A stretch of DNA of 35,892 nt from Sphacelaria rigidula (lineage: Eukaryota). A program made the translations under genes and the position numbers. Positions 1 to 34,844 of the stretch are shown here, in pieces. Position 1 is the first letter of the stretch. Every line of letters begins with the position of its first letter. The notes beneath the pieces were generated by a model. That model was not told where the DNA came from and searched no databases. It saw nothing but the letters and a program-made list of their open reading frames with translations. The DNA lies in the NCBI GenBank assembly GCA_964200075.2, contig CAXNAA020000021.1, forward strand, positions 1 through 35,892, written 5' to 3'.

Positions 1-54
1 GCGGAGAGGGAGGGGGGGGGACGGGGGGCGGGGGGGGGGGGGAGGAGGGGGGAG

Positions 55-88
<34 letters not shown>

Positions 89-90
89 GG
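1..90. repeat. Poly-G low-complexity tract
   Basis: Almost pure G run at the start of the window; similar tracts occur at 34551-34573 and 34724-34763. Confidence 0.95.
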
Positions 91-91
91 C

Positions 92-370
92 GTTCTCATT
101 TGTTTCGAGCATCCAAGTAATCCCCCTAACTGCTGCAAGCTGCACTGTTCCCAACTCCTTCGCCGAAAGGGGGGGGCGTACTCATTTGTTTCGAGCATCC
201 AAGTAATTCCCCTAGCTGATGTCATCTGTACCGTTCCCAACCCCTTTACCAACTTCACTGCATCCAAGTATTCTCTGAGCTGTTGCAATCTGTACTGTTC
301 CCAACGTGTTCACTAATTTTATTGCATCCATCTTTTACCTGCTGCTATTTGCACCGCTTCCGCATCAAGG
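92..370. repeat. Degenerate tandem repeat, period about 65-87 bp
   Basis: CTCATTTGTTTCGAGCATCCAAGTAAT recurs at about 95 and 181; GCATCCA...CTG(C/T)AC(T/C)GTTCCCAAC recurs at about 109, 196 and 260, and more weakly at 325. Confidence 0.7.
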
Positions 371-649
371 TATTATTTTAGCTGCTGCCAGCTGCACTGT
401 ATCAATTCCTTCAGCAACTGCACCCCTTGCTTTGCCAAGTCTGATACCAATATCGGGTCATCAAAGAATACCTTAAGTAGAGAGGGTGATGACGTACATC
501 CTGGTGGGACTCCTTGCAAAATATCAAAATATTTCGATATTTCCCTGTTTAGCATCATCGCACTTTTGGCACATTTCTGTCGTCTTCATCGTCCACACCT
601 TTCCTTTGATCACAATTCCTCATATATTTTCCCACAACCCATTGCTATA

Positions 650-1378
650 CTGCGTCATGAGCCTTTCGCACCTGTATCACAACCATGGGAAGAGTTGGAG
701 ATGGACCTGCTGAGAATAGACACTGCATCGCTTACGAATAACAAGTACATTCTGTTGATCGTAGACCGAGCCTCCAAGTTTCCCTTCGTCTTTCCACTCC
801 GAACGAAGCAGGCTGAAAGAGTAGCTCGCATCCTTGCTAAACTCTGCTTGACCTTCGGCGTCCCCCGCAAAATTCCGTAGTGACGGAGGAAAAGAATTTA
901 GAGCTGAGGTGGTGACACACTTGTGCAGGTGGCTGAAAGCAGACATTGCTTTTGGGCCCTCTGATCACCCCAGAGACCAAGGAGCAGCCGAGAGGCTGGG
1001 GGGATGGCTACCAGACATGCCGGCAGAGCTGTGTGGGTCGTGGCCCCAGAGATGGGACGAGTACGTCTCCGAAATAGCGTTTCTTCTTTGGAACTAGACG
1101 CTTTCCACGCACTTTGGCACCTGTACAACCCCGCAGTTGCACCCAATCCGCCCCCGCACTCCATGAAGCGCCCCGCTCCCCTGTCGTGCAGTGACGCCTT
1201 GAAGCTTTTCCGAATAGATGTTACTTCCTGGAAAGACTTTAGAGGTCTCAAGGTCAAGGGTCAGGTGTATGACTACGGGAGTCGCTTTTGGCGAGTACGA
1301 TACGAAGACGGAGACTGGGAGGAGCTATCCCGCCAGGAACTAGACCGTTTAACGCGGGAAAAAGGACCCCTACTTTGA
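650..1378 (+). pseudogene. Ty3/Gypsy integrase core remnant followed by a C-terminal Tudor-like domain (end of pol)
   Basis: PWEELEMDLL...KYILLIVDRASKF...FGVPRKI, then a frameshift, then SDGGKEF...HPRDQGAAERL...WDEYVS gives the D,D(35)E rve motifs. After an internal deletion near 1070 comes KDFRGLKVKGQVYDYGSRFWRVRYEDGDWEELSRQEL and a stop at 1378. Confidence 0.85.
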
Positions 1379-1438
1379 ACTTGAGTGGGAATGTCTAGGA
1401 ATAGTCGGTATATGAAATGGTACAGGATATCATTGCGC

Positions 1439-1640
1439 AGGGAAGGGGGTTGTAAAATAAGCAAGAAGAAATGTTGGTACCGTACTCTTCAGTGTGAATT
1501 ACGAGTGTGCCTGTTTTTGTTTCTTCTTTTTCTTTGTCGTTCCTTGGCCTTGTCTGGTTCCCATTTTGTAACATGCAAATACAGTTACGAGCCAAGGCGC
1601 GTGGGCTCTATTCTTCGTAGCATAAACATCAGTACTTACA
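1439..1640 (+). mobile_element. Polypurine tract plus 3' LTR (1451-1640) of the integrase-Tudor element
   Basis: AGGGAAGGGGGT is directly followed by TGTAAAAT (1451) and the segment ends AGTACTTACA (1640), giving TGTAA...TTACA termini about 70 bp after the pol stop. No second LTR is present in the window. Confidence 0.65.
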
Positions 1641-2062
1641 GGCAAGCACTTCCCAAAAGCTGCACTCCTGTAACTGTTGATGAGTTCGTGGAAAGGTTGA
1701 TTTTAGCGAATCCAACGTAAGTTGGATGTGGTTAAAGCCCCGCACTACCCTGGAATTCAGTGTAACTGATCCAGGGTGTCGACGCGCGATGAAGCTAATT
1801 AGCTAATCGTTCTCCAGTCTAACTGAGATCCCGGGAAAACGACAGCGATCGCACTTGTCTGCGGTTTCTGTCGATTGGAAAGGGCGCTAGAGATTTTTTT
1901 CCTTTCCTAACGGATAGGGTTTCCCCCGTCTAACGGGGTTTACCTATCTATTAGATACCGAGTTTTCCCCTGCAACATTAGCTGCAGGTTTTTCTCGTTT
2001 CCTTATTTTCAGGTGTTGATGCACAAGCTTCGTTTCCCACATTCCTTTCGCTTAGCCTTATT

Positions 2063-2282
2063 AAAAGGCTGGGGGGATGTTCCGGATGTATCGGTCATGA
2101 TCCAGTCGAGTAGATTCCATGTGTCATACTCTTGCGTGGTCTAGCCCGACAGGTCATGTGCCATTCTGAGTCTGTTTGATTTCGACTGTGCCCCCCTACT
2201 CGGCCACAGTCTTTTGGGAACTCATCTCAACGCACACGTAGCAGCTATCAGCCGGTTGCCAATAATACAAGAAGCATCAACA
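2063..2282 (+). mobile_element. Probable PPT plus 3' LTR (2078-2282) of another LTR element
   Basis: AAAAGGCTGGGGGGA is followed by TGTTCC (2078); AATAAT lies near the end and the terminus is TCAACA (2282), giving TGTT...AACA. No partner LTR is seen. Confidence 0.45.
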
Positions 2283-5095
2283 CTATCTCGGACTGCTATT
2301 TCTGAGGAGCCTCCGGCCTTCACACAATGTAAGCCTGACCTTCATGCAGCACATGCTGTGCTGCAGCCTGCGTGGTTCATGGCATTCCACCTGACCACTG
2401 GTGCGCTGGTTGACTCGCACTTGACAATATCGAACTCAATGGTTTCGATACTAGAGACTGTGTTCGGGTCTGCTAGCCCTGGTGCCCACTGAACTGGCAT
2501 CTACCATTCCCAGCTAGAGTATCGTACCATGACATGAGCACTGACACACTCCAGAGCATAAAGTCGTGAGTACGAGTTCCACTGCTGTACCTTCTTGACC
2601 GTTTTTTTCTGCCAGGTACCATGCCCATGCTGTAGGGGGTATATTGTTCGTGCGCTGCAAAGGCTGTACAGCATATTAACAGCGATGAATTCTACACGGA
2701 GTGACGGGACCCTGTGAAGCGCCGTGTGTGGCACAACATAATACCCTACAGTCAAATCCCCGCGAGAGACCCTGCACAATTTTCCTGTTACCCTGTGAAG
2801 CGTCCTGTGGGGCGCAAAAAAAAACACTACAGCCAGATCCCCGCGAGTAACACTGCACAGTTTCCCTGAACCCTGTAGGCGTACCCCTCAGGGTGCTATT
2901 TGTCCACGTGTGCTCTATCGCGATTTCCATCCTCTCGAGGGTAAAGTGATCCTCCCGAGGATAAAAACACTCTCTGGAGGGTATTTCATACTCAGCTCCG
3001 GTCATAAAACGAATCCTCTGCAGGGCATCTGATGCTTCAGTGACTTCTGAGGTCTGAATCCCTCCAGAGTACCGAAAATATGGTGCTCTGTAGCACGTGG
3101 TTTCCGTGAACGTCCCTTAGAGAGAAATATGAACAGCAGAGGGAAATATAAGCATCATTCCTCTGGAGGAGGGACCGCCTATGGCCTCTAAGGCATTTGC
3201 TGCGACTCCGGAGGACATAGACGTGCAGTATCCTCCAGCTTGTAAATTTTCATTTGTGCACTTGCGTTCTAACTGCTTCCAGGGCACCTTTGGGACCCCA
3301 GCAATATTATGGTATGGGCCATCACGCCAGATATATCTACATCACCCGCCGTTCACATTGACCTTCCTGTGTAACCCCGGCTGGTGCGCCCACATACTGC
3401 ATACCGAAAGGTGTAGATCGGCGCCCGAAATAGATGGGACGACAACACACAACCTAACCTATCGTTCACAGCTTGAATTGCAAACCCGGCAACACTTATA
3501 TTCCCAGCTACAATACCACCACAAAAACCCTGCAGCAAAGGGCGCGAGCCGGGCACCGGGATATGGATACACACCGCAGTAGTTGGGTATGTTGTATGTC
3601 TTGTCGGTGGAAATTAAAACTCGAGCATCTTCTTTCCTGGTCGCGGAGTGGCGCGGTGCCGGAACCATGCGGGGTAGGGTGCGGGCAATAACCGGCGGCT
3701 TGTAATGCATACACACCCACCATGGACAGTAGTGCAGGCAGACAAAGCTGCGCACACTGTTCAAATCCTTTTAACGTCGCACTGTAAGCAGAAACATACA
3801 TATAGTCCTTCGCTGTCTGTGCTGTTCTTTGCCCGCTTCCCCTTCGCGTCCTACTGACTGCAGCGGTGAGCATGCTGCGAAACGGGCGTCGTGATGCATA
3901 CTCAGTGGCTGATGGTATATGACACCCCCATGCAGCCAAAGTTACAGGCATCCACTTTGTTTAGCCATGCGTGGCGCATATGTCCCGCTAACCCTGCATT
4001 ATATTGCACCGTACGTATATAAGCACGATATGGTACTGTCCTGCACGGTACTGTAGAGTTCAGTACAGCACCAAACCGTGCTTATTGTTGTGATGGTCAT
4101 ATCGCCGTCAACGTACAGAATGAACCGCGGTCATATTTTTTCGCGTGTTCATTCGAACAAATGGTAGACCCGGGACCACGGGGTTTAAAAACCTGTGTAG
4201 ATACATCTCAGAGGTTCGTGCATGTTTTACACCATCACCACTAGCTTACTTCAGGTGATGGCGGGCAAAGTGAGGATTTACTTCGGATAGTTTCTGGTGT
4301 ACAAATTATATCTGCGAGTGTATATGGGAAATGAATCCTTTTTGCCCGATTCCGATGATTCGGAATTAGGATTTATACCGAATAGCAGAGGCAGCAAAGA
4401 TTCCAGATCTTTCCATAGCACTTGTGCCTTCAAAAACGATCCAGGGGATTCAAATATTGACACAGACCTTGGAGAGCCCCAACATTGAAAATCCTCCAGA
4501 GAGAGGATTACGAATACCCAAGATCCTCTAGGGGGGATTTCAAAACGGACGGAACCGAGGATGACGTTTGAAAATTCCTCTACAAGGTAGCCGAATGGCT
4601 GTGTGTGCACCAAAGGTATCGTTTGTCGCTCCGCATGTCAAGAAGGTCTCCACAAGTTTTTGATCACTCTCACACACACACACCAACTGGCCTGAGGCAG
4701 GCTCTTGTGCTCGTGTCGGCTAAAATCAACGGTGAAAAACACCTCCCAAGTTCAAAGTGGATCATCTGTTATTTTTGCCGCGCAGCGCACCGTCCTTGTT
4801 GGCATGTGTGTGACCGTGAACAGTAGTAGCGGTGACTGGAACATTCCCCTGCTTTTCAATGACATATTCGTCAGCGCACAGAGGCACGTCCTGTCCAAAA
4901 AAAGAGGCAAAGGGAGATAGATCTTTTGGCATTGGTGAGCTCGGCAGGCAAGGACAGACGAGATCTCTCCGCAGGGCGATGTTCTGGCCCACGAAAAATT
5001 AGGTACATATGCTGGTGACATCGATGATGCCAGGCTCTCGAGCGGTTGATGATCGCCGAGTTAGGACACACAAAGGACACGGGCGAGGAGCTTCC

Positions 5096-6508: not shown

Positions 6509-6772
6509 TGTAGCCAAATGATACCAAGCCGTAGGTTTCAGTATAATCGCATGCATGATTGGAGCAGTGACAGGGGACAGGGGACAGGGGTCCTGGATTG
6601 ATGACCCTTATCTGTGTGGCCCCTTGCTGTTTAGCTCTTGATATGGCCTGTTGAGGATCACTCCGTGATAATAACATGTGAGAACAAAGGACTTATCGAG
6701 CACGAGGCCAGTGATACTGGAGGAGTCCCTCGTTGATAGTCCTCTTGTGCAGATCGTCTGGCAGACGCTATA
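6509..6772 (+). repeat. 5' LTR of element 1
   Basis: TGTAGCCAAATG...GCAGACGCTATA; about 90% identical by eye to 10967-11224 (about 20 substitutions and one small indel). Confidence 0.95.
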
Positions 6773-6969
6773 ATATCTAGATATTTTCCGGCTTTCTGTG
6801 AGAGGAGTTTGAGTGAGAAGAGAGTGGGCCACAGTCGGAGAGCCAGTGTAACCCGGAGACACGAAGACACCAACAACTTGAAGCGCACAGCGGTGGGGGA
6901 CGCTCCGTGAGCTCGAGGACGCAAAAGTCAGGCAAGAGGCTGTACGTGAAGTGTTTGAACCATTAGGAT

Positions 6970-8205
6970 ATGGCTCAAGCGACGGCAGCGCCGCTGGTGT
7001 TTGGTGAGCCACTAGAACCGTCTGAGTATGGCGAAGTGTGGACAGAGGAGGCATCACGCATTTTTCTCGCAGCATATCTTGAATATCTACAGCGGTTGAG
7101 TCTCGCTAATGGGCAAGGAATTATACGGCATGAGCGAGTAAGCATAGGACAACTCATTCCTATCTACATTCACCGCTGCTTCGAAGACATGTTCGAGGGC
7201 GGTCTGGCTATGACCCACGATGAATTGCTTGATGCCGTGAACCAGCTTGCCGGGTACACCACAACCGTCGGAAAGCATGACACTGCTCGGGCTGCAGCAG
7301 GCCTGCGTAGAGAACTCACGATGAAGCAAAGCGGGGGAAAATCCGTGAAGGATCGTGCTATAATGGTCAGTTCAGATATGGAACGGTGTTTTGTAGAAAA
7401 CCTCATGGTTCCAGCCATGTACCGTGCGGAGGACAGGAGTTGGTTGCCAGGCCCGGCCGAGTCGGTCTCCATAGCTTTGGTGGACGAGATTTCGCCTTCT
7501 GAATTCAAGGCGTTTGTTCAAAGTGTACTAACGTTTGTTGACGGCTGGAAAAAAACCCTGACAATGGTGTTCACAAAAATATTTCAAGCTGCCGGGCAGT
7601 GGAAATTTATTGAGGCATATAGCCGGCACGATTCTGCAACAAGTGCAGGTGGTATGCGCCGCGAACAGCAACAGAAACAGAAACAGCAGCCGTCTTCGCG
7701 AAAGTCGTCCACTTGCGCGTGTTACAACTGCGGCACACCAGCTATGATCGAAGACTGCCCCAAGCCCCGCGCTCAAGGCGCTGCACAGGGTAATGTGCGT
7801 TATTCTTCGGGATCCCGGGGCGGTCGTCAAGGTGGACGGGGCCGTGCCAATCAGGGACGCGGGCGCGGTGGCCGCGGCAGCAAGCAATCAGCAGCGGATG
7901 GTGGTTCCTCCGCTGCTGATTGTTCCACTACAGGTGGTCACTCTGGATCTTATGATTCGTCCGTAGCCGGGGGGACTGTGCACGTGGGAAGTGCAGATAC
8001 TTCGGTGGGGAGTGCTGGAGCGAACAGCTCGCAACCCCTCGGCCAGGCAGGATCCGTGCCTGGTGCGTTTCCTACTACTGCGATGGCTGCAACAGCGCCG
8101 TCTACAAATTCGGCGACTTGGTTTGGTTGGACCGATGGTTTGCAGCTATCGATGCCAACTGCTGGAGGGCAGCACTGGCGTCAGGTGACTCTTGGTACAG
8201 AATAG
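6970..8205 (+). CDS. gag: Gag-like ORF of element 1 (411 aa; degenerate CCHC knuckle, RGG-rich region)
   Basis: ATG about 200 bp after the 5' LTR. The knuckle CYNCGTPA-MIEDCP reads C*NCGDIGHMIKDCP in element 2. The terminal TAG corresponds to CAG in element 2, so it is probably a nonsense mutation in a single gag-pol frame. Confidence 0.8.
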   Translation: MAQATAAPLVFGEPLEPSEYGEVWTEEASRIFLAAYLEYLQRLSLANGQGIIRHERVSIGQLIPIYIHRCFEDMFEGGLAMTHDELLDAVNQLAGYTTTVGKHDTARAAAGLRRELTMKQSGGKSVKDRAIMVSSDMERCFVENLMVPAMYRAEDRSWLPGPAESVSIALVDEISPSEFKAFVQSVLTFVDGWKKTLTMVFTKIFQAAGQWKFIEAYSRHDSATSAGGMRREQQQKQKQQPSSRKSSTCACYNCGTPAMIEDCPKPRAQGAAQGNVRYSSGSRGGRQGGRGRANQGRGRGGRGSKQSAADGGSSAADCSTTGGHSGSYDSSVAGGTVHVGSADTSVGSAGANSSQPLGQAGSVPGAFPTTAMAATAPSTNSATWFGWTDGLQLSMPTAGGQHWRQVTLGTE

Positions 8206-10888
8206 AATTCTTCGGCAGGCGTATTACCCGTCGATCGCAAGGCTGAGTGCTTTCGCACAGATCTTTCTTTGTTAGGTTCCGTACGTTCTTTCATGGCCCG
8301 CGTTATTCTGGATTGTGGGTCCACGCTCACGTCGATCGGTGTGGGGTTGCTAGAGCAAATATCTTCGCAGTTTGGGGGCGCCCAACTTCAGATTCCGTTC
8401 GAAACCGGACCGCAAACGGCGCAGATCGCCACGGGTGCTCTCGTGACGGTTACACACAAAACGGTGCCAATTACGGTTAGCGTGCGTACGCCGTGGGGGG
8501 CTGTGCAGTTGCAGCCCATTGCGTTCGCGATCATACCCGGTAGGGAAAACGTGGTTCTATTTGGGATGGCGACAATCAAGGAGCTTGGGATTGATCTATA
8601 TCCGTTGACGTTGAAGAAGTTACGTCCGCGTGCTGTGTCGGTGCAAACCGGCGTGGAAAACCCCAGGTACCTTGCTACAAGGCGTGTGATCGTATCCATA
8701 CGGCCATTGCAGAGCGCTAATGAGGAGTAGGCTCCAGCGGATGAAGCGGTGGAGCGCTTCGTCGATCGGGAGCCCGACATGTTTATAAACCCAGCGGAGG
8801 AAAGAGGTGCCCAAGAACGTGCGCTAGAGGATAGGGTGTAGCAGACCGAACAGAAGGGCCTGAGCGCCGATGGCGCACTTTGTCTGCGCGATAATTTGGC
8901 TCGTCGCGTAGATATATTTCGTCGTTCGCTGCGTGGTGATCCGCCAGTGCGCGTGGAGTCAATGAAGCAGGCTGTGAAGGCCAAGCCTCGCCGCTGCGAT
9001 CCCGTGAGGACCGTGTGGCTTGCTTCATTCATCGCAGTTTTGGTGGCATTTGGTTTGTTGGTTGGGAAGATTCAGGCTGTCTGAGCGAGTCCGGCGATGG
9101 CGGTGCCGAAGAGGGACACATTCCGTTTGGTCAGCGACTAGCAGGCGGTGAACGCGCAAATGGGATTGTCTCCGGGGGTGATGCCAAGCCAAGGAGACAT
9201 GCTGGCGTCGCTGGGAGCTAAACAACCATGTCGGTATGTCATTGAACACACTCCTGAAAAGCGCAATTGTTGGGGAGATTTTTTTTCTCGCCGGGTGAAG
9301 GCTCCTACCGTGCCTCTTCGTTCTGCTGCCGTGTACTGCCGGTGTGATGCCGATGATTCGCTGCCCTCGTTAGATGTCATTCGTACCGCGCAGCGCGAAA
9401 CAGTCGGCGACGGTGTTCAATCTTTTCCTACGACCTTCGGTCAAGCTGCTTTGACTGACGATGGTTTGTTTCGCGTGCGTGTTGGCAATAGTGATGGTTT
9501 GTGGATTCCGTCGGAGGATATGGCTTTACACACTCGCTTAATGGTGTGCGCTCACATGCGGTCGACTGGACACCGTGGTGTGGCGCCGACTCTGTTTCGT
9601 TTGAAAGAATACTGTGTGTGGTCTCACATGGATTCCCACGTTCGCGATTTCGTTCGCCAGTTTTTGCATTGTTTAGACACTCGTGCTGGTGATATTGTAC
9701 CTCGTCCGTATGGCGATACTGTGCAAGGTACTGCGCCAGGTGAAGTTTTCCACTTTGATTTTCTGTACGTCGGAAGTAGCAGACCTAACGGTGCCAATGG
9801 TTTGCCTGAGGAGGATGGTTTTCGGTACGTTTTGATAATCATGAATGATTTGTCCAATTTCGTTTACTTGGAGCCAACCGAGGCTTGCACCGCCGAGGTT
9901 ACGGCTAAGCACTTGCTCCATTGGCGCAAGACTTTGGGGGTGCCACGTGTTTGGGATAGTGATACCACCACGCACTTCACAAATCGAGTGATCCTCGTGC
10001 AACACCAATTTTCTATTGCGTATACCCCTTGGTCGAATGGTGCTGGTGAACGCATGGTGAAAAAGGTTATTCGTGCGTTGCGGTCTATTTAGTCGGAACA
10101 GAGACGGCCGGTGTCTTAATGGGTTGATGTTTTGCCAGCCGCTCAGTGGGCGTTGAATACTTGATTTCGTGAACGCTACTGTAACACTCCGTGTTGTGTA
10201 ATATTTGGGCGTGCGCCGAGTACAGCGTTTTCCGCTCTGGCTTCTGTCACTGCCGGCGAGAGGAACGTCGATGTCATGGATGCCGATTCGTTGCGTGACA
10301 AGGTTAGAGGCGTGGTTGACGAGCAAGTGCGCTTTTGTAACGAAGTGCAAGCTGCTGTCGCGGTGCCTCGCAAAACCAATCGCAAGCTTGCTCAGGGCCA
10401 GGCTGTCTTGTCCATGTTTGCAGTTGGCGATTTCGTCTTGTATGTCCGTGTTCGTAGGCAGGGTGTGACACCAAAGTTGATGTGCACATGCACAGGTCCG
10501 TAGCGGATGGTCGGAGCCGATCACGCTCACGCGTATTCGGTGCAGAACATTGTTTCTGGCGTCGTGCACTCGGCCCATGTCGCTCGTTCACGTTTCTATG
10601 CTGACTCGCAGTTGCACATCACTGCGGAACTAAAAGATGTATTTCAGCATTCGTATGCTCAAGGTGATTGTCGGATGAATGCTATGGTGCACGTAGTTGA
10701 AGATGACGATGGGTGATGTCATTGTTTTCGTCGATTGATAAGGGTTTGGTGCTGAGGAACGTACGTGGGAGTCTCTTCGCAATATTCATTCTTCTGCGCC
10801 TGAATTTATTTTGAAGAAACTGCGTGAAATGCGGTTGACGCGGGCGCTGACCAGGAAATTAGCGTCGGAGTACGGTATTTATTTGTGA
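8206..10888 (+). pseudogene. pol: pol remnant of element 1: aspartic protease, RT N-terminal stub, RNase H C-terminal end, integrase, chromodomain
   Basis: Protease VILDCGSTLTSI and VLFGM; RT ASPAMAVPK..FRLVSD*QAVN; RH end YVIEHTPEKRNCWGDFFSR; IN HMRSTGHRG, FHFDFLYV, WDSDTTTHF, YTPWSNGAGERM; chromodomain VFVD**GFGAEERTWESL. Several stops and frameshifts. Confidence 0.9.
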
Positions 10889-10966
10889 TCTGGCGTATGC
10901 GATTTCGCCTCGGTTTTTGTTGGTTGTCAAGCTCGTTCGTTCGTCTTGAACTCGCTTTGAGGGTGC

Positions 10967-11224
10967 TGTAGCCAAATGATACCAAGCCGTGGGTTTCAGT
11001 ATAATCACATGCATGATCGGAGCAGTAGCAGGGGAAAGGGAATCCTGGATTGATAACCCTCATCTGTGTGGCCCCTTGCTGTGCAGCTCTTGATGTCGTC
11101 TGTTGAGGATCACTCCGTGATAATAACAAGTGAGAATAAAGGACTTGTCGAGCACGAGGCCAGTGATACTGGAGGATTCCCTCATTGATAGTCCTCTTGT
11201 GCAGATCGTCTGGCAGAGGCTATA
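10967..11224 (+). repeat. 3' LTR of element 1
   Basis: Direct repeat of 6509-6772, preceded by a short G-rich tract TTGAGGGTGC. Confidence 0.95.
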
Positions 11225-11928: not shown

Positions 11929-12176
11929 TGTAGCATCTGCCAGACGATCTGCACAAGAGGACTATCCACGAGGGAAATCCTCCAGTAGCACTGGCCTCGT
12001 GCTCAACAAGTCCTTTCTTTTCACTTGTTATATTAACGGAGTAAACAGCTGCGGCCCGTACCGTCAGGTATAGGCTACACAGCAAGGGTCATCATCCACA
12101 GGATGCCCTCGTCCCCTGGTCATCATCCAGGACCCTACATTCTACATTTACTACGCCTTGGTATATTTTGGCTCCA
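11929..12176 (-). repeat. 3' LTR of element 2
   Basis: Direct repeat of 16445-16690. The adjacent GCACCCCCAAAGCGAGTTCAAGAC is the reverse complement of the element 1 PPT region. Confidence 0.95.
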
Positions 12177-12255
12177 GCACCCCCAAAGCGAGTTCAAGAC
12201 AAACGAGCGAGCTTGACAACCAACAAAAAGCCAAGGCGAATTCGCATGCTCCAAA

Positions 12256-12870
12256 TCACGAAGAAATGCCATACTCCGACGCTGATTCACTTGTCAGTGC
12301 CCGAGTCAACCTCAGTTTACGCAATTCCTGCGCAACAAATTCAGGCGCACAAAAGTTATCTTCCAAAGAGATTGCCACATAATGTCTTCAGCACCGAACC
12401 CATCTCAATCGACCAAAACAATAACGTTACCATTGCGTCAGAACCATACGACCAATGGGTATACGCAACATCAACTTGGTGTTGCATCTCCAGCGCGTCG
12501 CTCTGCTGCGCGATTCTTGTACTTGGTTCTTCAAGTACGTGGCAGTATCACTAACCCACACACGCCGCACCCCCAAAGTCTTGCGCCATTGCAACAAATA
12601 CTCAGCCGTGGCCTCGGCACTGCAAGCCTCGGTTGGTTCCAACCAAACGAAATTCGACAAATCATCCGGGAAAACAAACGTACAGCAAATCAGCAGGCCT
12701 TTAGTACCGTCACGTTTGCTGCTTCCGACGTATAAAAATCAAGTCGAACAACCTCGCCTGGCGCAATACCTTGAACGGTATGGCCGAAAATGTGCCACGG
12801 GCAAGGATCAGTTTTCACACGTGCATAGTTTCTTTGATCCTCGAACACACGAAAACTCGTGTGATCTCTG
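12256..12870 (-). pseudogene. Integrase core fragment plus chromodomain remnant (copy close to element 1)
   Basis: FGHTVQGIAPGEVVRLDF; SNFVWLEPTEACSAEATAEYLLQWRKTLGVRRVWVSDTATY; then VIVLVD*DGFGAED and the same pol C-terminus (SEYGI). Confidence 0.85.
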
Positions 12871-13369
12871 CTCACCGACAACGAGCCTACGCATGTCGTA
12901 GTTTCAGCTCATTTTCACGTCATCAGCAGCAGTCACCGTCTCCTACAGTCAGTACGAACTCGATTTCACTAATCATTCTGCAGTAGTTTGTTAACTGCCT
13001 CACCCTGGCGGTCATCAGACACCATGAATATCAGTAGCATTCGAGCGAAACTTCCACGTATGCATGCCAAGATCCCACTCAGCATACGAAAATTCGTACA
13101 TGCATTCCCATTCCACTCAACATACGAAAAATCGTACATGCATACCAACATTTTACTCAGGACCTGCAATGCAACCCGTGTTGCACAAACCATGCATCAT
13201 GCATGCTATTCAGAGCAGCACAACACACGCATACCGAATTCCACGCGTACACCGGCATTATCCAGGGAACGCAACACGAGCACACCCGCTCTATTGCCAT
13301 GCTTCATGAGCGAACAGCAACATAAATATGACCCAAAAGCACCCCATACCAACATTTAATCGACAGAAA

Positions 13370-14280
13370 ACGATTCGGAAATACCAGTCACCATGTGTGT
13401 CCTCATGCTCAACAATCACCCTCACAAGTACTTGCTCCTCAACAATATTCAATCCGGAGCTCACCACTATATCACTCATCTCAGGCAGTCCCCGCTTTGT
13501 AGGCTTCCAGTCCGCTCCTGCGAAGAAGCAGCACTGGAACCACTACCTTTTGCACACCATAGAGCAACAATTCCTCTCGTACGGTAGCTCCTAGCAGCCG
13601 CATCTAGCACCCCCATGGTACATATCAGAATTCCACCAAATAGCATATGCTTACTGCCAAACCAATGCGACAAATACTCTGCCTCCACAGAAGCTTGCGC
13701 TGTTTCAGTCGCTTTTTTAGGCGAAACAAGAGGTGGAACGGGAACAACGATACAGTCCCGCATAGCAACAGCTCTCGAGGGCACCACATCATCCTCATTA
13801 ATCATCTGATCTGACATGATATGAGAAATATCACGAATCATTCGCGTACATTTACGATGAGACAACGGAGAACTGACCATCCGAAATCTACGATCCACCA
13901 GTGCCTCATTAAACGCTCTCACCGCACAATTCTCCACATGCCATCCCGTATCGCCTACCCATACCTCCGGCGACCCTTTCGCTTTTGCTTTGAACCATGT
14001 CGGAAAATGCTCCACCTTCTTCGCCTCCACACTAGACTCCGCGGGCTCCAACCACACGAAGTTGCTCACATTGTCTTTGATCACCAAATTATCTTGGATC
14101 GGATCTCCGTCGTCCAACCCACCATTTTCCAGCTGACCCCTCGCTCCATCGCTGGGGAAATTGACTTTTATCACCCTCCGGGCGAGTACCATGCACCTTA
14201 TCCCCACCATGCACCATATCCTCGTGGGGAAGGAGAATGTGCGCCCCCACCTTGGATTTGCTCACCCGTCGCGAGCAGAA
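13370..14280 (-). pseudogene. Second, strongly diverged integrase remnant inside element 2
   Basis: VIKVNF..GGLDDGDPIQDNLVIKDNVSNFVWLEPAES...SPEVWVGDTGWHVEN...SSPLSHRKCTRMIRDI aligns motif by motif with the element 1 sequence FHFDF..NGLPEEDGFRYVLIIMNDLSNFVYLEP...VPRVWDSDTTTHFTN...YTPWSNGAGERMVKKV. Confidence 0.8.
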
Positions 14281-14284
14281 ATTT

Positions 14285-16274
14285 TCGGGCATTTCCATCG
14301 CCGCTTTCTCCAAGTTAGTTTGACTGCAAACTGTTGTAAAGTAACCCAAACGCCACCAAAACTGCAATGCACGAAGCTAGCCACCCGGCCTCCACCGGAT
14401 CGTTGCAATGGGGCTGGGCGTTCGCAGCCGTCGCCTGTGACTGGGGCTGCACCTTCATAGGCTGTATGGCTCCCCTCTCAGGAGCTTCCTCTTCTTTTTC
14501 ACCTGTATCCTTTTTGCTGTCACTTTGAAACGACCACACAGGGACGATCCCCCCCCTAGCCGAAATATAGTTTGAACTACCCACTCCAGTTTGCACCGGC
14601 ACAGCCCGCAGACGTAATTCTCCAACGCCAGTGGATACAAATCAATTATCAGCTCCTTGATTGTCGCCATCCCAAATAGAACCAGGTTTTCCCTACGGGG
14701 CATGATCTTGAACGTAATTGGCTGCAAGCGCACCGCCCACTACGGCGTACGAACGCTAACAGAAATTGGCACTGTTTTGTACGTAACCGTCACGGGAGCA
14801 CCCGTGGCGATCTGCGCCGTTTGCGGTCCGTTTTGAAACGGAATTTGAAGCTGAGCGCCGCCAAACGGCGAAGACATTTGCTCAAGCATCCCCACACCAA
14901 TCGACGTGAGAGCGGACCCAGGATTCAGAATAACGCTTGCCATAAATGAACATACAGAACTAGGCAAGACTGAATCTGCGCGTAAGCATTCACCCTTGCG
15001 ATCAACAGGTACCACGCTTGCCGAAGAACCCTGTTCTGTCCCAATAGTCACCTGACGCCAGGGCTGCCCTCCAGCACTTGGCATTGATAGCTGCGAATCG
15101 TCGGTCCAACCAGACCATGTCGCCGAATATGAAGACGGCGCTGTAACCGCCGTCGCAGCTGTAGGGAATGCACCAGATACGGATCCTGCCTGACCGATGG
15201 GTTACGTGTTATTCGCTCCAGCACTCCCCACCGAAGTATTGCCGTTTCCCACGTACACTGTCCGCCCCGCTACGGACGAACCAGAAACTCCAGAGTCACC
15301 ACCTGATGACGTAGTGGAAGAAACAGCAGCGGAGGAACCACCATCCGCCGCCGATTGCTTGCTGCCACGGCTGCCGTGGCCGGGTCCCTGATTGGCACGG
15401 CCCTGTCCACCGTGACGACCGTTCCGAGATCCTGATAAATTTCGTGCATTGCCCTGTGCAGCGCCTTGAGCGCAAGGCTTGGGGCAGTCCTTGATCATAT
15501 GTCCGATGTCGCCGCAGTTTTAACACGGGCGAGTGGACGACTCTCGCGAAGACGGCAGCTGTTTCTGTTGCTGTTGCTGTTTGCGGCGCATACCACCTGC
15601 ACTTGTTGCAGAGTCGCGCCGGCCATGTGCTTCAATGAACTTCCACTGGCCGGCGGCCTCAAATAGATTTTTGAACACCATTGTCGGGTTCGTTTTCCAG
15701 CCGTCAACATACGTTAGTACATTTTTGACATATGCCTTGAAGTCCGGGGGCGAAATCCCATCCACCAAAGCTATGGACACCGACTCGGCCGGGCCACGCA
15801 ACCAACCCCTGTCCTCCGCACGGTACATTGCTTGCACCATCAAATTTTTAGCAAGAAGCCGTTCCATGTCTGAGCTAACCGTCATAGCACGATCATTCAC
15901 GGACTTTCCATCGCTCTGCTTCATGTGAGTACCCTACGTAGGTCTGCTGCAGCCCGCGCTGTGTCATGCTTTCCACCGGTTGTCGTATACCCGGCATGCT
16001 ACTTCACAGCATCAAGCAATTCTTCGAAGGTCATAGCCCGACCGTCCTTGTACATGTCTTCGAAGCAGCGGTGCATGTAGACAGGGATGAGTTGACCTAT
16101 ACTCACCCTCTCATGCCGTATGATTCCCTCTGCATTAGTTAGACCCCACCTCTGTATGTATTCAACGTATCTTGCAAAAAACACGCGAGATGCCTCCTCG
16201 GTCCATACTTCACCATACTTTGGCGGCTGTAATGCCTAAGGCAACACCAGCGGCGCTGCCGCCGCTTGAGCCAT
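14285..16274 (-). pseudogene. gag, protease and RT stub of element 2 (frameshifts and stops)
   Basis: ATG at 16274 (MAQAAAAPL); IIRHERVSIGQLIP; AESVSIALVDGISP; GHMIKDCPKP; VILNPGSALTSIGVG; NLVLFGMATIKEL; WLASCIAVLVAFGLL. Confidence 0.9.
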
Positions 16275-16444
16275 GCCGTTCAAACTTCAAACACTTCACA
16301 GAGATACTGTTGCCTGGCACGTGTCCTCCAGCTCACGGAGCGTTCTCCTGTCTTCGGGCTACTGACTCTATGAGCTGCTACCCCTTCGTTTCTCCTCAGC
16401 CAAGACTCTTCTAAAAGAGTACCGGAAGAACAATATCCAGATAT

Positions 16445-16690
16445 TATAGCCTCTGCCAGACGATCCGGACAAGAGGACTATCAAGAAAGGACTCCTCCAG
16501 TAGCACTGGCCTCGTGCTCAACAAGTCCCTCCTTCTCACTTGTTGTATTCACGGAGTAAACAGCTGCGGCCCGCACCGTCAGGCATGGACTACACAGCTA
16601 GGATCATCATCCACAGGATGCTCTCGTCCCCTGGTCATCATCCAGGACTCTACATGCTACATTACTACGCCTTGGTATATTTTGGCTACA
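16445..16690 (-). repeat. 5' LTR of element 2
   Basis: Minus strand reads TGTAGCCAAAATATACCAAG...GCAGAGGCTATA. The 3' ~110 bp is shared with the element 1 LTR; the middle is divergent. Confidence 0.95.
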
Positions 16691-19136: not shown

Positions 19137-20234
19137 CTTAGAAAATAAACTCTTGTGTGCAGTGATACATTTTTTTTTATTATGTCCCATTCGTTGTCCA
19201 TACCAAATTTCTGGGTCCAACTCTGAAAATTGGCCGACAAAGGCCTGCGAGCTATAGATTCGCTTCTAGGCTGGCCCACCTCGCACGGTACGACATGTGA
19301 ACACACCGCGCGTCGAAGCACTTTCTCGCCAAGCACTTGTTGCCCGCTATCGTTTTGAGCGAACGTCGGACGAATATCGGAGCGAGAGGCAATAAAGAGG
19401 CGTTGGCAGAGTGTTGATCCTTCATGCGAAGATAGAATGAATTCATGTACTCAAAATTGAGTTCCCTTTCTCCCTCCCGAAAAAAAGTACCAAAACAAAC
19501 ATCCTCAACCCCGAAACTGATACCGGCCGAAATGTGAAAAACGTACTTCGAAAGGCCGATTTTTAAGATCCCCTGTCACAGCAATACCCCTTGCGTCTAC
19601 TAGTTTCATGCGAATGCACCAAACTTAGTTCTGCACGAGGAACTCTACCCTTGAACTCAATATTGTGCGTACTGGTTTGGGCACTTCACCGCAGCGAACA
19701 CTAAGTTACACAAGTTGCTCACTACCCATAAAACGCCGCAGTTGCCACGGCAAAGTCTGCTTCTCGGTTGAGAGCTGAACATGGGGAGGCGCGGTCATTC
19801 CCGACCGATTGACTCACTCGCCGGCATTTCGAAGACGAGGTGCTAGTGATCACTATGAGGACGCATGTATTGCCCTTCGCCATCCTACATGCCTTTGGCC
19901 ATCTGCGTGATCCGCACCTGAAATATAAGCATGGACTTGCAACAAAAAACGCCAACATGTATACACAGATGGACAGCCTCTCGTTTTCATACCCAACCAG
20001 CATGTACCATATACAACACAGCTATATCTGTATTCTTGCCCGAAATTCAGCCACGTGACGCCACACCCCAATTGCTCTCAACCATCTCTTCAAAGAGACC
20101 AGGTCGGACATGGGAAGACATGAATCGTTGCATCAGCTGATTGAATCAGCGGCCTGAACATCAACCGATGCAGTCAGGCAGACCACGCAGCACTCTCAAT
20201 TGACTCTCTTCCCCCAAAGCGAAGTTTACGGCGT

Positions 20235-20648
20235 GACGGTCCCTGTCACGTCCTGGATCGGCTGGATGAACACCCTGCCAAACCTCAAATCTTGCAGCGA
20301 AGCAGGCCATGCCACCTCATCGGTCTGTCGGTTGAAGTTGTCCCCGAAGACCAACTTCTACAGCAAGACAGGCCACTCCACAAACTTGATCGACTGGTTG
20401 AAGTTGTTCCCGAACGCCAACTTCTGCAGCGAGGCAGGCCATGTCACACCCTCGATCGGCTGGTTGAAGGAATTCTCAAACAGCAACTGCTGCAGCGAGG
20501 TAGACCATACCACACCCTCGATCGGCTGGTTGAAGTCGCCAACAAACGTCAACTGCTGCAGCAAGACAGGCCACACCACACCCTCGATCGGCTGGTTGAA
20601 ATGGTATCCCAACATCAACCGCTGCAGCGAGGCGGGCCATGCCACACG
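20235..20648 (-). pseudogene. In-frame continuation of the FNIP array beyond premature stops
   Basis: Six more units follow in the same frame after the TAG at 20649-20651 (normally E). A second TAG lies at 20358-20360 (normally Q). The pattern decays after about 20240. Confidence 0.8.
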
Positions 20649-22153
20649 CTAAATCGGTTGGTTAAACGACCCCCAGCACGTCAACTGCTGCAGCGAGGCT
20701 GGCCATGTCACACGCCCAATCGGCTGGTTAAATGACCCCCGGAATGACAACTGCTGCAGCAAGACAGGCCACGCCACACGCTCAATCGGCTGGTTGAAGT
20801 TGCCAACAAACGTCAACTGCTGCAGCGAGGCAGGCCATACCACCAGCTCGATCGGCTGATTAAATGACCCCCGGAATGACAACTGCTGCAGCGAGGCAGG
20901 CCATACCACAAGCTCGATCGGCTGGTCGAACGTGTTCCCAAACGTCAACTCCTGCAGCGAGGCAGGCCATGTCACACGTCCAATCGGCTGGTTAAATGAC
21001 CCCCCCACTGACAACTCCTGCAGCAAGACAGGCCATGCCACACGCTCGATCGGCTGGTTGAAGTCGCCAACAAACATCAACTGCTGCAGCGAGGCAGGCC
21101 ACGCCACACGATCAATCGGCCGGTTGAAGTTGCCAACAAACGTCAACTGCTGCAGCGAGGCAGGCCATGTCACACGCTTGATCGGCTGGTTGAAGTCGCC
21201 AACAAACGTCAACTGCTGCAGCGAGGCAGGCCATACCACCAGCTCGATCGGCTGGTCGAACTTGTTCCCAAACGTCAACTCCTGCAGCGAGGCAGGCCAT
21301 GTCACACGTCCAATCGGCTGGTTAAATGACCCCCCGAATGACAACTCCTGCAGAAAGACAGGCCATGCCACACGCTCGATCGGCTGGTTGAAGTCGCCAA
21401 CAAACATCAACTGCTGCAGCGAGGCAGGCCACGCCACACGCTCAATCGGCTGGTTGAAGTTGCCAACAAACGTCAACTGCTGCAGCGAGGCAGGCCATAC
21501 CACCAGCTCGATCGGCTGGTCGAACTTGTTCCCAAACGTCAACTCCTGCAGCGAGGCAGGCCATGCCACACGCTCGACCGGCTGGTCGAATCTCCTCCTA
21601 AACACTACCTGCTTCAGCGAGGCAGGCCATGTCACACCCTCAATTGGCTGATTGAAGTCCGACCCAAATGCCAATTGCTGCAACGAGGCAGGCCAGGCCA
21701 CATTCTTGATCGATTGGTCGAATTTGCTCCGTCCAGACGAGCTACCCCCAAACGAGATACGTCTAAGCCGCGTCGGCCATATCACATCATCAAGATCGGC
21801 GTTGAAATCGCTGTCAAATTCCATAAATTCAACATTCGCCAAAACGTTGGTCTCCCGAGACATGCGCTCGATATCGGCACACGCCGTCCATACAACCCCG
21901 CGTGCTCGCAGCGACGGCACTTCAGTCTTATCGACACCGCTATCCATCGGAATCGATAACTGCTCGGCAGGAGCCGCCCACAGCCTTCGCGGTGTGTGTC
22001 TATCAACTGTCACGCATAATGTGCTGACGCCGCGGCAAGCTATGCAAAACTTCAGCGACGCCAGCTGTAAGTTCATCGTGGACAGGTACAACCCTCGCTC
22101 CGATGAAGCCATGTTGAGCGCGATGGTGAATGCATCCAGGCACAAGTTGCTAC
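20649..22153 (-). CDS. FNIP-repeat (22-aa LRR-like) protein, large coding exon
   Basis: Tandem WPASLQxLxFxxxFNQPIExVx units of 66 bp. A polypyrimidine tract and CAG acceptor lie at 22175-22154 directly upstream. The frame ends at a TAG within repeat 17. Confidence 0.85.
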
Positions 22154-22280
22154 CTGTATCAAGAGGGTAGGAAAGACAATCAACTGCATTTCACGTGAAT
22201 ACTGCCCAGCATAATACTCTGGCTCGGGTCAATATCTATCACGAATGGAATTGCTGAACATTGAGAGGATCGAACAATAT

Positions 22281-34550: not shown

Positions 34551-34732
34551 GGGGGGGGGGGGGGGGGGGGGGGCCCCTTGAAGCAGATTACGGGCGCGAA
34601 AGCTAGCACCACACGGCGTTTTTTAATCCCAATCCCCAATCGCTTCTGGGNNNNNNNNNNTAGTGTTCACAACATTATGTTTCTGCTTAATGCATATCGT
34701 GTTCTCGTTATCGTCGCCGTCCTGGGGGGGGT

Positions 34733-34764
<32 letters not shown>

Positions 34765-34844
34765 AGTCCGCTTGAAGCAGATTACGGTCGCGATAGCTAG
34801 CACCACACGGCGTTGTTTAATCCACATCTCCAATCGCTTCTGGG
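34551..34844. other. Scaffold gap (N 34651-34660) with duplicated poly-G plus 74-bp flank
   Basis: CTTGAAGCAGATTACGG...CGCTTCTGGG occurs at 34577-34650 and 34771-34844, each preceded by poly-G. Confidence 0.85.

Follow-up and report, generated by a model that had tools for sequence, protein, structure and literature searches.

We analysed a 35,892-nt stretch of the Sphacelaria rigidula assembly (GCA_964200075.2, contig CAXNAA020000021.1, positions 1–35,892 of the forward strand; the whole stretch is called the window below), near the left end of which an integrase remnant is followed by a Tudor domain. Positions 681–1714 are most probably a dead fragment of a Ty3/Gypsy element of a brown-algal lineage, the Pol protein of which ends in a tail of three small domains (SH3, chromo-like and Tudor) that would be a putative chromatin tether in intact elements. 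The window copy itself is dead: it is cut at 681, has one base too many at 873 and is 705 nt short at 1070. The parts of the remnant and its left neighbour are listed here from left to right; P0006 is a related protein and X6 a sequencing run with a related contig, both described below.

449–680, no strand: unrelated high-copy repeat adjoining the cut-off element (contig breaks at 680/681, peak of summed depth).
681–1070, forward strand: remnant of the integrase catalytic core, DD35E type (tblastn with P0006, Pfam rve fragment match).
1067–1132, forward strand: LRNSV...LYNP, predicted as the closing helix of the middle, chromo-like domain (alignment to P0001–P0006, AlphaFold2 (AF2) model).
1070–1071, forward strand: point at which about 705 internal nt are deleted (X6 contig alignment, gap in the P0006 alignment).
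1133–1186, forward strand: linker rich in proline and basic residues (low predicted local distance difference test (pLDDT) score, no secondary structure, variable columns in alignment A2).
1187–1360, forward strand: Tudor module with a short helix, four strands and a C-terminal helix (AF2 model).
1376–1378, forward strand: TGA stop of pol (sequence).
1439–1449, forward strand: candidate polypurine tract, 11 purines, one base before TG (sequence).
1451–1714, forward strand: candidate 3' long terminal repeat (LTR) with a TGTAA start at 1451, its end at 1640 (TTACA) or at about 1714.

On the forward strand of 650–1378 the translation is spread over three frames. Frame A terminates at an in-frame TAG (878–880), and its 650–877 part matches Pfam rve with E 8.6e-5 and 23.2 bits, below the cut-off of 32.6 because it holds only a fragment of the core. 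Frame B (852–1094), for which no Pfam match of its own was found, contributes two of the three catalytic residues, the second D and the E, and frame C (965–1375) ends with the peptide quoted in the original prediction. Read across 681–1070, the spacing D, D, 35 residues, E is legible. By tblastn, 680–862 corresponds to residues 96–156 of P0006 (70% identity) and 864–1070 to its residues 157–225 (71% identity); the rve match of P0006 itself lies above the cut-off (38.8 bits). The Pfam match and this identity together bear out the rve integrase core that had been proposed from the letters. A much longer relative, P0153, matches the window through residues 1419–1548 and 1784–1881, which are integrase parts only, and a search of the whole window with it found neither reverse transcriptase (RT) nor RNase H.

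The lesions of the copy were located with related copies in public sequencing runs. The best run shared 0.43 of the sampled words with the window and none shared at least half; no run with matches was recorded as RNA, and four that were guessed to be RNA are possibly DNA. Contigs of four runs were aligned to window 1–2600, and their summed depth, which is not a copy number, was used only to locate changes. Some contigs of X1, X2 and X4 match as far as 680 and carry different sequence thereafter, contigs of X2 and X4 that match from 681 carry different sequence to the left, and the alignment of the long X6 contig also begins at 681. The loose end before 681, when translated, reads as the expected integrase residues, with 6 of 9 positions as in P0006 by our own reading. 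Because of the contig breaks at 680/681, we place the beginning of the remnant at 681 and not at 650, where the integrase had been taken to start. Each of the four runs has one contig without the extra base at 873, a base private to the window copy. At 1070, a 2697-nt contig of X6 (record 28) aligns its positions 956–1344 with window 681–1070 and its positions 2050–2697 with window 1070–1714; it holds 705 nt more exactly there, a size predicted by the protein alignment. Residues 226–460 of P0006 have no counterpart in the window (tblastn), 1067–1357 corresponds to residues 461–558 (52% identity, tblastn), and the alignment of P0153 has the same gap pattern. Along with the last part of the core, the deletion took the SH3 (GPY/F) domain and the greater part of the chromo-like domain. 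With three frames, one added base and 705 nt lost, the core and the Tudor part do lie in different frames across a deletion, as had been stated.

The question left by such a copy is whether integrase and Tudor share one open reading frame (ORF) in intact relatives. The last 103 residues (window 1067–1375) were used as a query in large protein collections. A word-based search for longer proteins gave 3 matches among 157 candidates, and an exhaustive phmmer search recovered 148 proteins with E values up to 1e-3; 33 of them reached 1e-10, and none reached 1e-30. A Pfam scan of 20 longer matches found Integrase_H2C2 and rve together with a Tudor at the end in P0006 (558 aa), P0029 (669 aa) and P0099 (1017 aa), each a single protein; these three match the window tail directly with E values of 4e-22, 6e-11 and 2e-5, respectively. 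The 90%-identity cluster of P0006 consists of eight proteins of Ectocarpus sp. CCAP 1310/34. P0153 (1881 aa), which is among them, holds in one frame RVT_1 (723–882), RNase H (954–1082), H2C2 (1349–1404), rve (1423–1515) and Tudor (1837–1878) and stops three residues past the Tudor; the order RT, RNase H, integrase is that of Ty3/Gypsy (Metaviridae) pol. Further named relatives belong to Cladosiphon okamuranus and Nemacystus decipiens. We sorted P0001–P0150 (n = 150) by local phmmer: 74 share helix, linker and Tudor together, 50 share the Tudor part only (mostly short fragments), 19 are multi-Tudor proteins of cellular type and 7 match only the first part of the query. Since full-length relatives carry the fusion in frame (P0006, P0029, P0099 and P0153) and 74 of 150 proteins share the tail, we conclude from these sequences that the integrase–Tudor fusion, which the original prediction could only infer, is real and is a conserved trait of a sizeable family.

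Alternatively, the Tudor stretch could be a host gene beside or within a decayed element, or could come from a chimeric gene model, and so lie outside pol. Most of the relatives are indeed short fragments from short contigs, and P0070, a 974-aa gene model of Cladosiphon okamuranus with a Copia-type RT (RVT_2) followed by the Tudor tail without the preceding helix, does look chimeric; rather than a Copia–Tudor fusion, P0070 probably represents nested transposon fragments that were merged into one model. Against a host gene, the match ends at most 50 residues from the C-terminus in 71 of the 74 helix–linker–Tudor proteins, and P0153, an uninterrupted gag-pol, ends with the same tail. In addition, core, missing segment and Tudor are colinear in the related X6 contig, and the purine tract and TG of the window follow about 60 nt past its stop. 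We regard an origin outside pol as extremely improbable, and retain the Tudor as the end of an integrase.

The family assignment of this terminal domain comes from 1196–1375, whose 35.8-bit match to PF21743 (PTM_DIR17_Tudor; E 7e-9) exceeds the cut-off of 27.2 and spans profile positions 6–46 of 48. The PTM/DIR17-like Tudor pattern recognised by eye is thereby confirmed. PF21743 also exceeds the cut-off in P0001 (36.3 bits) and P0002 (38.9 bits) and is matched at E ≤ 10 in 35 of 43 relatives. An AF2 model of 1067–1375 built with 59 relatives (mean pLDDT 81.6) runs from the chromo-like helix through a disordered linker to a short helix, four strands and a closing helix, the Tudor domain forming a small SH3-like beta barrel. 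The top Foldseek rows for it are SH3-like barrels, PWWP domains and Tudors, among them Arabidopsis RDM15 with 32% identity over 37 columns. Conservation was counted over the family alignment (41–43 sequences, P0002 numbering): position 198 is aromatic in 34/43, position 200 in 40/43 and position 209 in 42/42, and W205 (38/43), D211 (36/41), W214 (34/41), and E215 and E216 (37/41 each) are retained. As regards a possible aromatic cage for a methylated residue, what was observed is that the strand aromatic positions are strongly conserved. No second copy of the Tudor tail was found in the window. As a separate observation, summed depth over the Tudor coding part (1219–1392) was several times that over the adjoining integrase core in all four runs; more copies or families may share the Tudor part at 85% likeness.

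The segment lost at 1070 is revealed by P0001–P0003 and the longer relatives. After the core, intact relatives carry three small barrels, namely the integrase SH3 domain, a seemingly chromo-like fold and the Tudor domain. An AF2 model of P0002 (42 relatives, mean pLDDT 80.5) has three compact parts, and in its alignment to 48,161 PDB representatives (best 50 rows considered) they are of different kinds. It proved correct to suggest that the peptide preceding the Tudor belongs, as its last helix, to one more domain of which a part is deleted, as LRNSV...LYNP aligns there in the relatives. Our own reading of the same peptide as the trailing motif of the integrase core was dropped; by the alignment of P0001–P0006 it lies about 235 residues downstream, in a separate domain. 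For the second module, the best named clusters in an Atlas feature search were all Chromo (0.89, 0.89 and 0.88, below the 0.9 line), which is independent but weak support for a chromo-like module. Pfam Chromo was matched by 0 of 43 family members at E ≤ 10, and the family profile (alignment A1) found no chromodomain among PDB sequences, just an N-acetyltransferase (E 2.2). From the models, the lineage seems to carry a chromo-like fold ahead of the Tudor. The Tudor was originally placed where chromoviruses have their chromodomain; that place appears to be taken by the chromo-like fold, with the Tudor as an extra module behind it.

Downstream of pol, the stop, the purine tract and TGTAA from 1451 follow each other as originally described, and the purine tract and TG make a start of an LTR at 1451 plausible. 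The end of the proposed TGTAA...TTACA repeat at 1640 is unconfirmed: the 5-base terminal inverted repeat at 1451/1640 is near chance level, and the related contig remains aligned through 1640 to 1714, its own end. A change near 1714 is indicated by a loose end at 1709, a joint 1613→1723 and a rise of summed depth in the bin 1654–1740, and a very abundant repeat begins near 1714. The element would reach to about 1714 if the related contig is a paralogue; should the contig be this very locus from another strain, its end carries no information. The 5' half of the element is missing from the window. Beside this boundary, 1710–1927 and 2263–2523 exceeded the integrase remnant in summed depth by a factor of about 10–100 in all four runs, the factor differing between runs; they are abundant short repeats. 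A tRNA-derived short interspersed nuclear element (SINE) at 1654–1927 was considered and found unsupported, ARAGORN finding no tRNA in the window.

Several observations weigh against a Gypsy element with a tail of chromatin readers. No second copy of 1451–1640 or 1379–1700, which would have paired the candidate LTR, was found in the window. The Tudor of the long relatives scores below the Pfam cut-off (19.5–21.4 bits). Foldseek returned nothing at E ≤ 1e-3 for the Tudor model of the window, and by VIA the Tudor rows were tied with KOW, SH3 and PWWP rows. Most family members have G or A at the position of the chromodomain cage tryptophan (in a by-eye register), so that the middle domain may not read methyl-lysine. 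In view of this altered position and the missing Pfam Chromo matches, we call the module chromo-like only. The fold results leave room for the terminal domain to be the ordinary SH3-like C-terminal domain (GPY/F) of a Gypsy integrase that scores as a Tudor by chance: both are small SH3-like barrels, and fold searches with the window model do not separate them. The ordinary SH3 domain is, however, found separately upstream in the relatives, in agreement with the original claim that the terminal domain is something else, and we hold a chance-scoring SH3 domain to be highly improbable. The fold is compatible with a Tudor without being decisive, and the assignment to the PTM/DIR17 family, which we retain, is made on sequence.

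An integrase with a C-terminal Tudor has been published. According to the accessible part of a recent study (PMC12477816, Genome Biol, Sept 2025), Ectocarpus has four Gypsy lineages, three with a C-terminal chromodomain and one, Gypsy-10_Ec32, with a C-terminal Tudor; Gypsy-10_Ec32 is called the first transposable element (TE) reported with a Tudor and has a homologue in Tribonema minus, and the chromodomain-bearing lineages are said to be unrelated to chromoviruses or Chronos. The idea of an unreported lineage therefore does not stand. Like the lineage in the window, Gypsy-10_Ec32 is a brown-algal Gypsy element whose integrase has a fused C-terminal Tudor (PMC12477816, accessible part), and the window element is a dead, diverged member of this published lineage type. 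A full-text literature search found a Tudor on a transposon reported nowhere besides PMC12477816. The accessible text of that paper has no mention of a chromo-like domain in the Tudor lineage, and its figure or supplements may show one; the three-barrel architecture is a modest addition to the published finding. The closest named relatives of the window element are the Ectocarpus sp. CCAP 1310/34 proteins, with about 70% (core) and 52–53% (tail) amino acid identity, values that refer to these proteins. At this level of identity, the window element belongs to another family than the Ectocarpus proteins.

Three kinds of known system resemble the tail. Chromoviruses and other chromodomain Gypsy elements (MAGGY, Tf1, oomycete Chronos) likewise end their pol with a Royal-family reader behind the integrase SH3 domain, and the chromo-like fold of the middle module would be a further likeness; the lineage differs from them in its want of Pfam Chromo matches and in the addition of a second reader, the Tudor. 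Cellular PTM/DIR17-like proteins (PF21743), of which Corethron pennatum (a diatom) and Ginkgo provide named examples, have 2–8 tandem Tudors and no transposon domains, in contrast to the single Tudor on an integrase in the element. The multi-Tudor proteins P0024, P0026, P0027 and P0135 have very strong PF21743 scores, and the Tudor repeats of the first three are 38–44% identical to the window domain. As such cellular proteins are among the phmmer matches, the Tudor of the element is homologous to cellular Tudors. Finally, when the whole model of the three-barrel tail was searched with Foldseek, the top matches were the SETDB1 triple Tudor (7uve_A, E 2.8e-4) and the SHH1 SAWADEE domain (E 0.026), which are also arrays of small reader barrels. 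With a template modelling (TM) score of 0.18 and a root-mean-square deviation above 20 Å, only the beads-on-a-string pattern is common to them and the tail, and the three barrels of the window lineage, unlike those arrays, are of different kinds.

Taken as a whole, the end of Pol in this lineage most probably comprises an HHCC finger, the DD35E core, an SH3-like GPY/F domain, the chromo-like fold, the linker and the PTM/DIR17-type Tudor. By analogy, in intact elements this tail may tether the complex of integrase and complementary DNA to nucleosomes, or to a chromatin protein, with a particular methyl mark; such tethering would bias the landing sites of new copies, as chromodomains do for chromoviruses. 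The window copy itself is incapable of any such function. Integrase reader domains are the clearest case of transposons choosing their landing sites, and a Tudor in this role would be a further kind of reader besides chromo and PHD domains. The organisms concerned mark their repeats with H4K20me3 and H3K79me2 (PMC7784034, PMC12477816). As the fusion is already in print, what the window adds is a further diverged, dead member and the chromo-like fold ahead of the Tudor, which matters for binding experiments: the cassette should be used rather than the Tudor alone.

The tail could also be functional without choosing sites, by binding a methylated non-histone partner (such as a methyl-arginine protein of RNA granules or of a small-RNA pathway) or by recruiting or blocking silencing after integration. 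The location of the domain at the integrase C-terminus speaks against this; to our knowledge, every characterised reader fusion of LTR elements at this place acts in tethering. The secondary Pfam matches of the cellular homologues (LBR_tudor, Tudor_3, Tudor_5) are likewise to histone- or DNA-damage-type Tudors. We consider a role apart from targeting distinctly unlikely, and keep tethering as the favoured function of the tail.

As to the mark that might be read, the available portion of PMC7784034 reports for Ectocarpus that H3K27me3 is absent, that H3K9me2/3 gave a weak immunoblot signal and no usable chromatin immunoprecipitation profile, and that transposons or repeats underlie 94.6% of the H4K20me3 peaks. 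The accessible part of PMC12477816 gives H3K9me1/2/3 as absent and H3K79me2 as linked to TEs. One may speculate that a two-reader cassette, a chromo-like domain without the usual cage plus a Tudor, arose as brown algae were without workable H3K9me/H3K27me3 heterochromatin, that the Tudor reads H4K20me3 or H3K79me2, and that new copies are thereby steered into existing repeat islands, a safe haven of the kind used by chromoviruses but built anew on another histone code. We offer this scenario tentatively and think it, on the whole, rather unlikely.

Elsewhere in the window there is a second, different Gypsy-like element at 6509–11224 (forward strand), with LTRs of about 260 nt (6509–6772 and 10967–11224, 91–92% alike). 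It has a gag-like ORF at 6967–8205, a weak aspartyl-protease match at 8206–8730 and integrase H2C2 plus rve at 9142–10092, and is without a Tudor tail. Merely about 400 nt are present at the expected place of RT/RNase H, and the P0153 search finds no RT. An inverted, diverged copy of the same family lies at 11967–16663 (reverse strand); its arms are 81–86% complementary to 6970–8618, it has its own repeat pair (11967–12148 and 16482–16663, 90% alike), and the two elements stand head to head. An RT-like motif seen by eye at 376–585 (reverse strand) was rejected, having no Pfam match at E ≤ 0.1. Poly-G runs (1–82, 34551–34573, 34724–34766), an 86-nt tandem repeat (83–420) and a gap of 10 N (34651–34660) are possibly spots that are difficult to assemble. 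On the reverse strand, 20145–22190 holds a 513-aa open frame of about twenty 66-nt tandem units that matches the Pfam FNIP repeat with E 3.3e-69 in 12 stretches.
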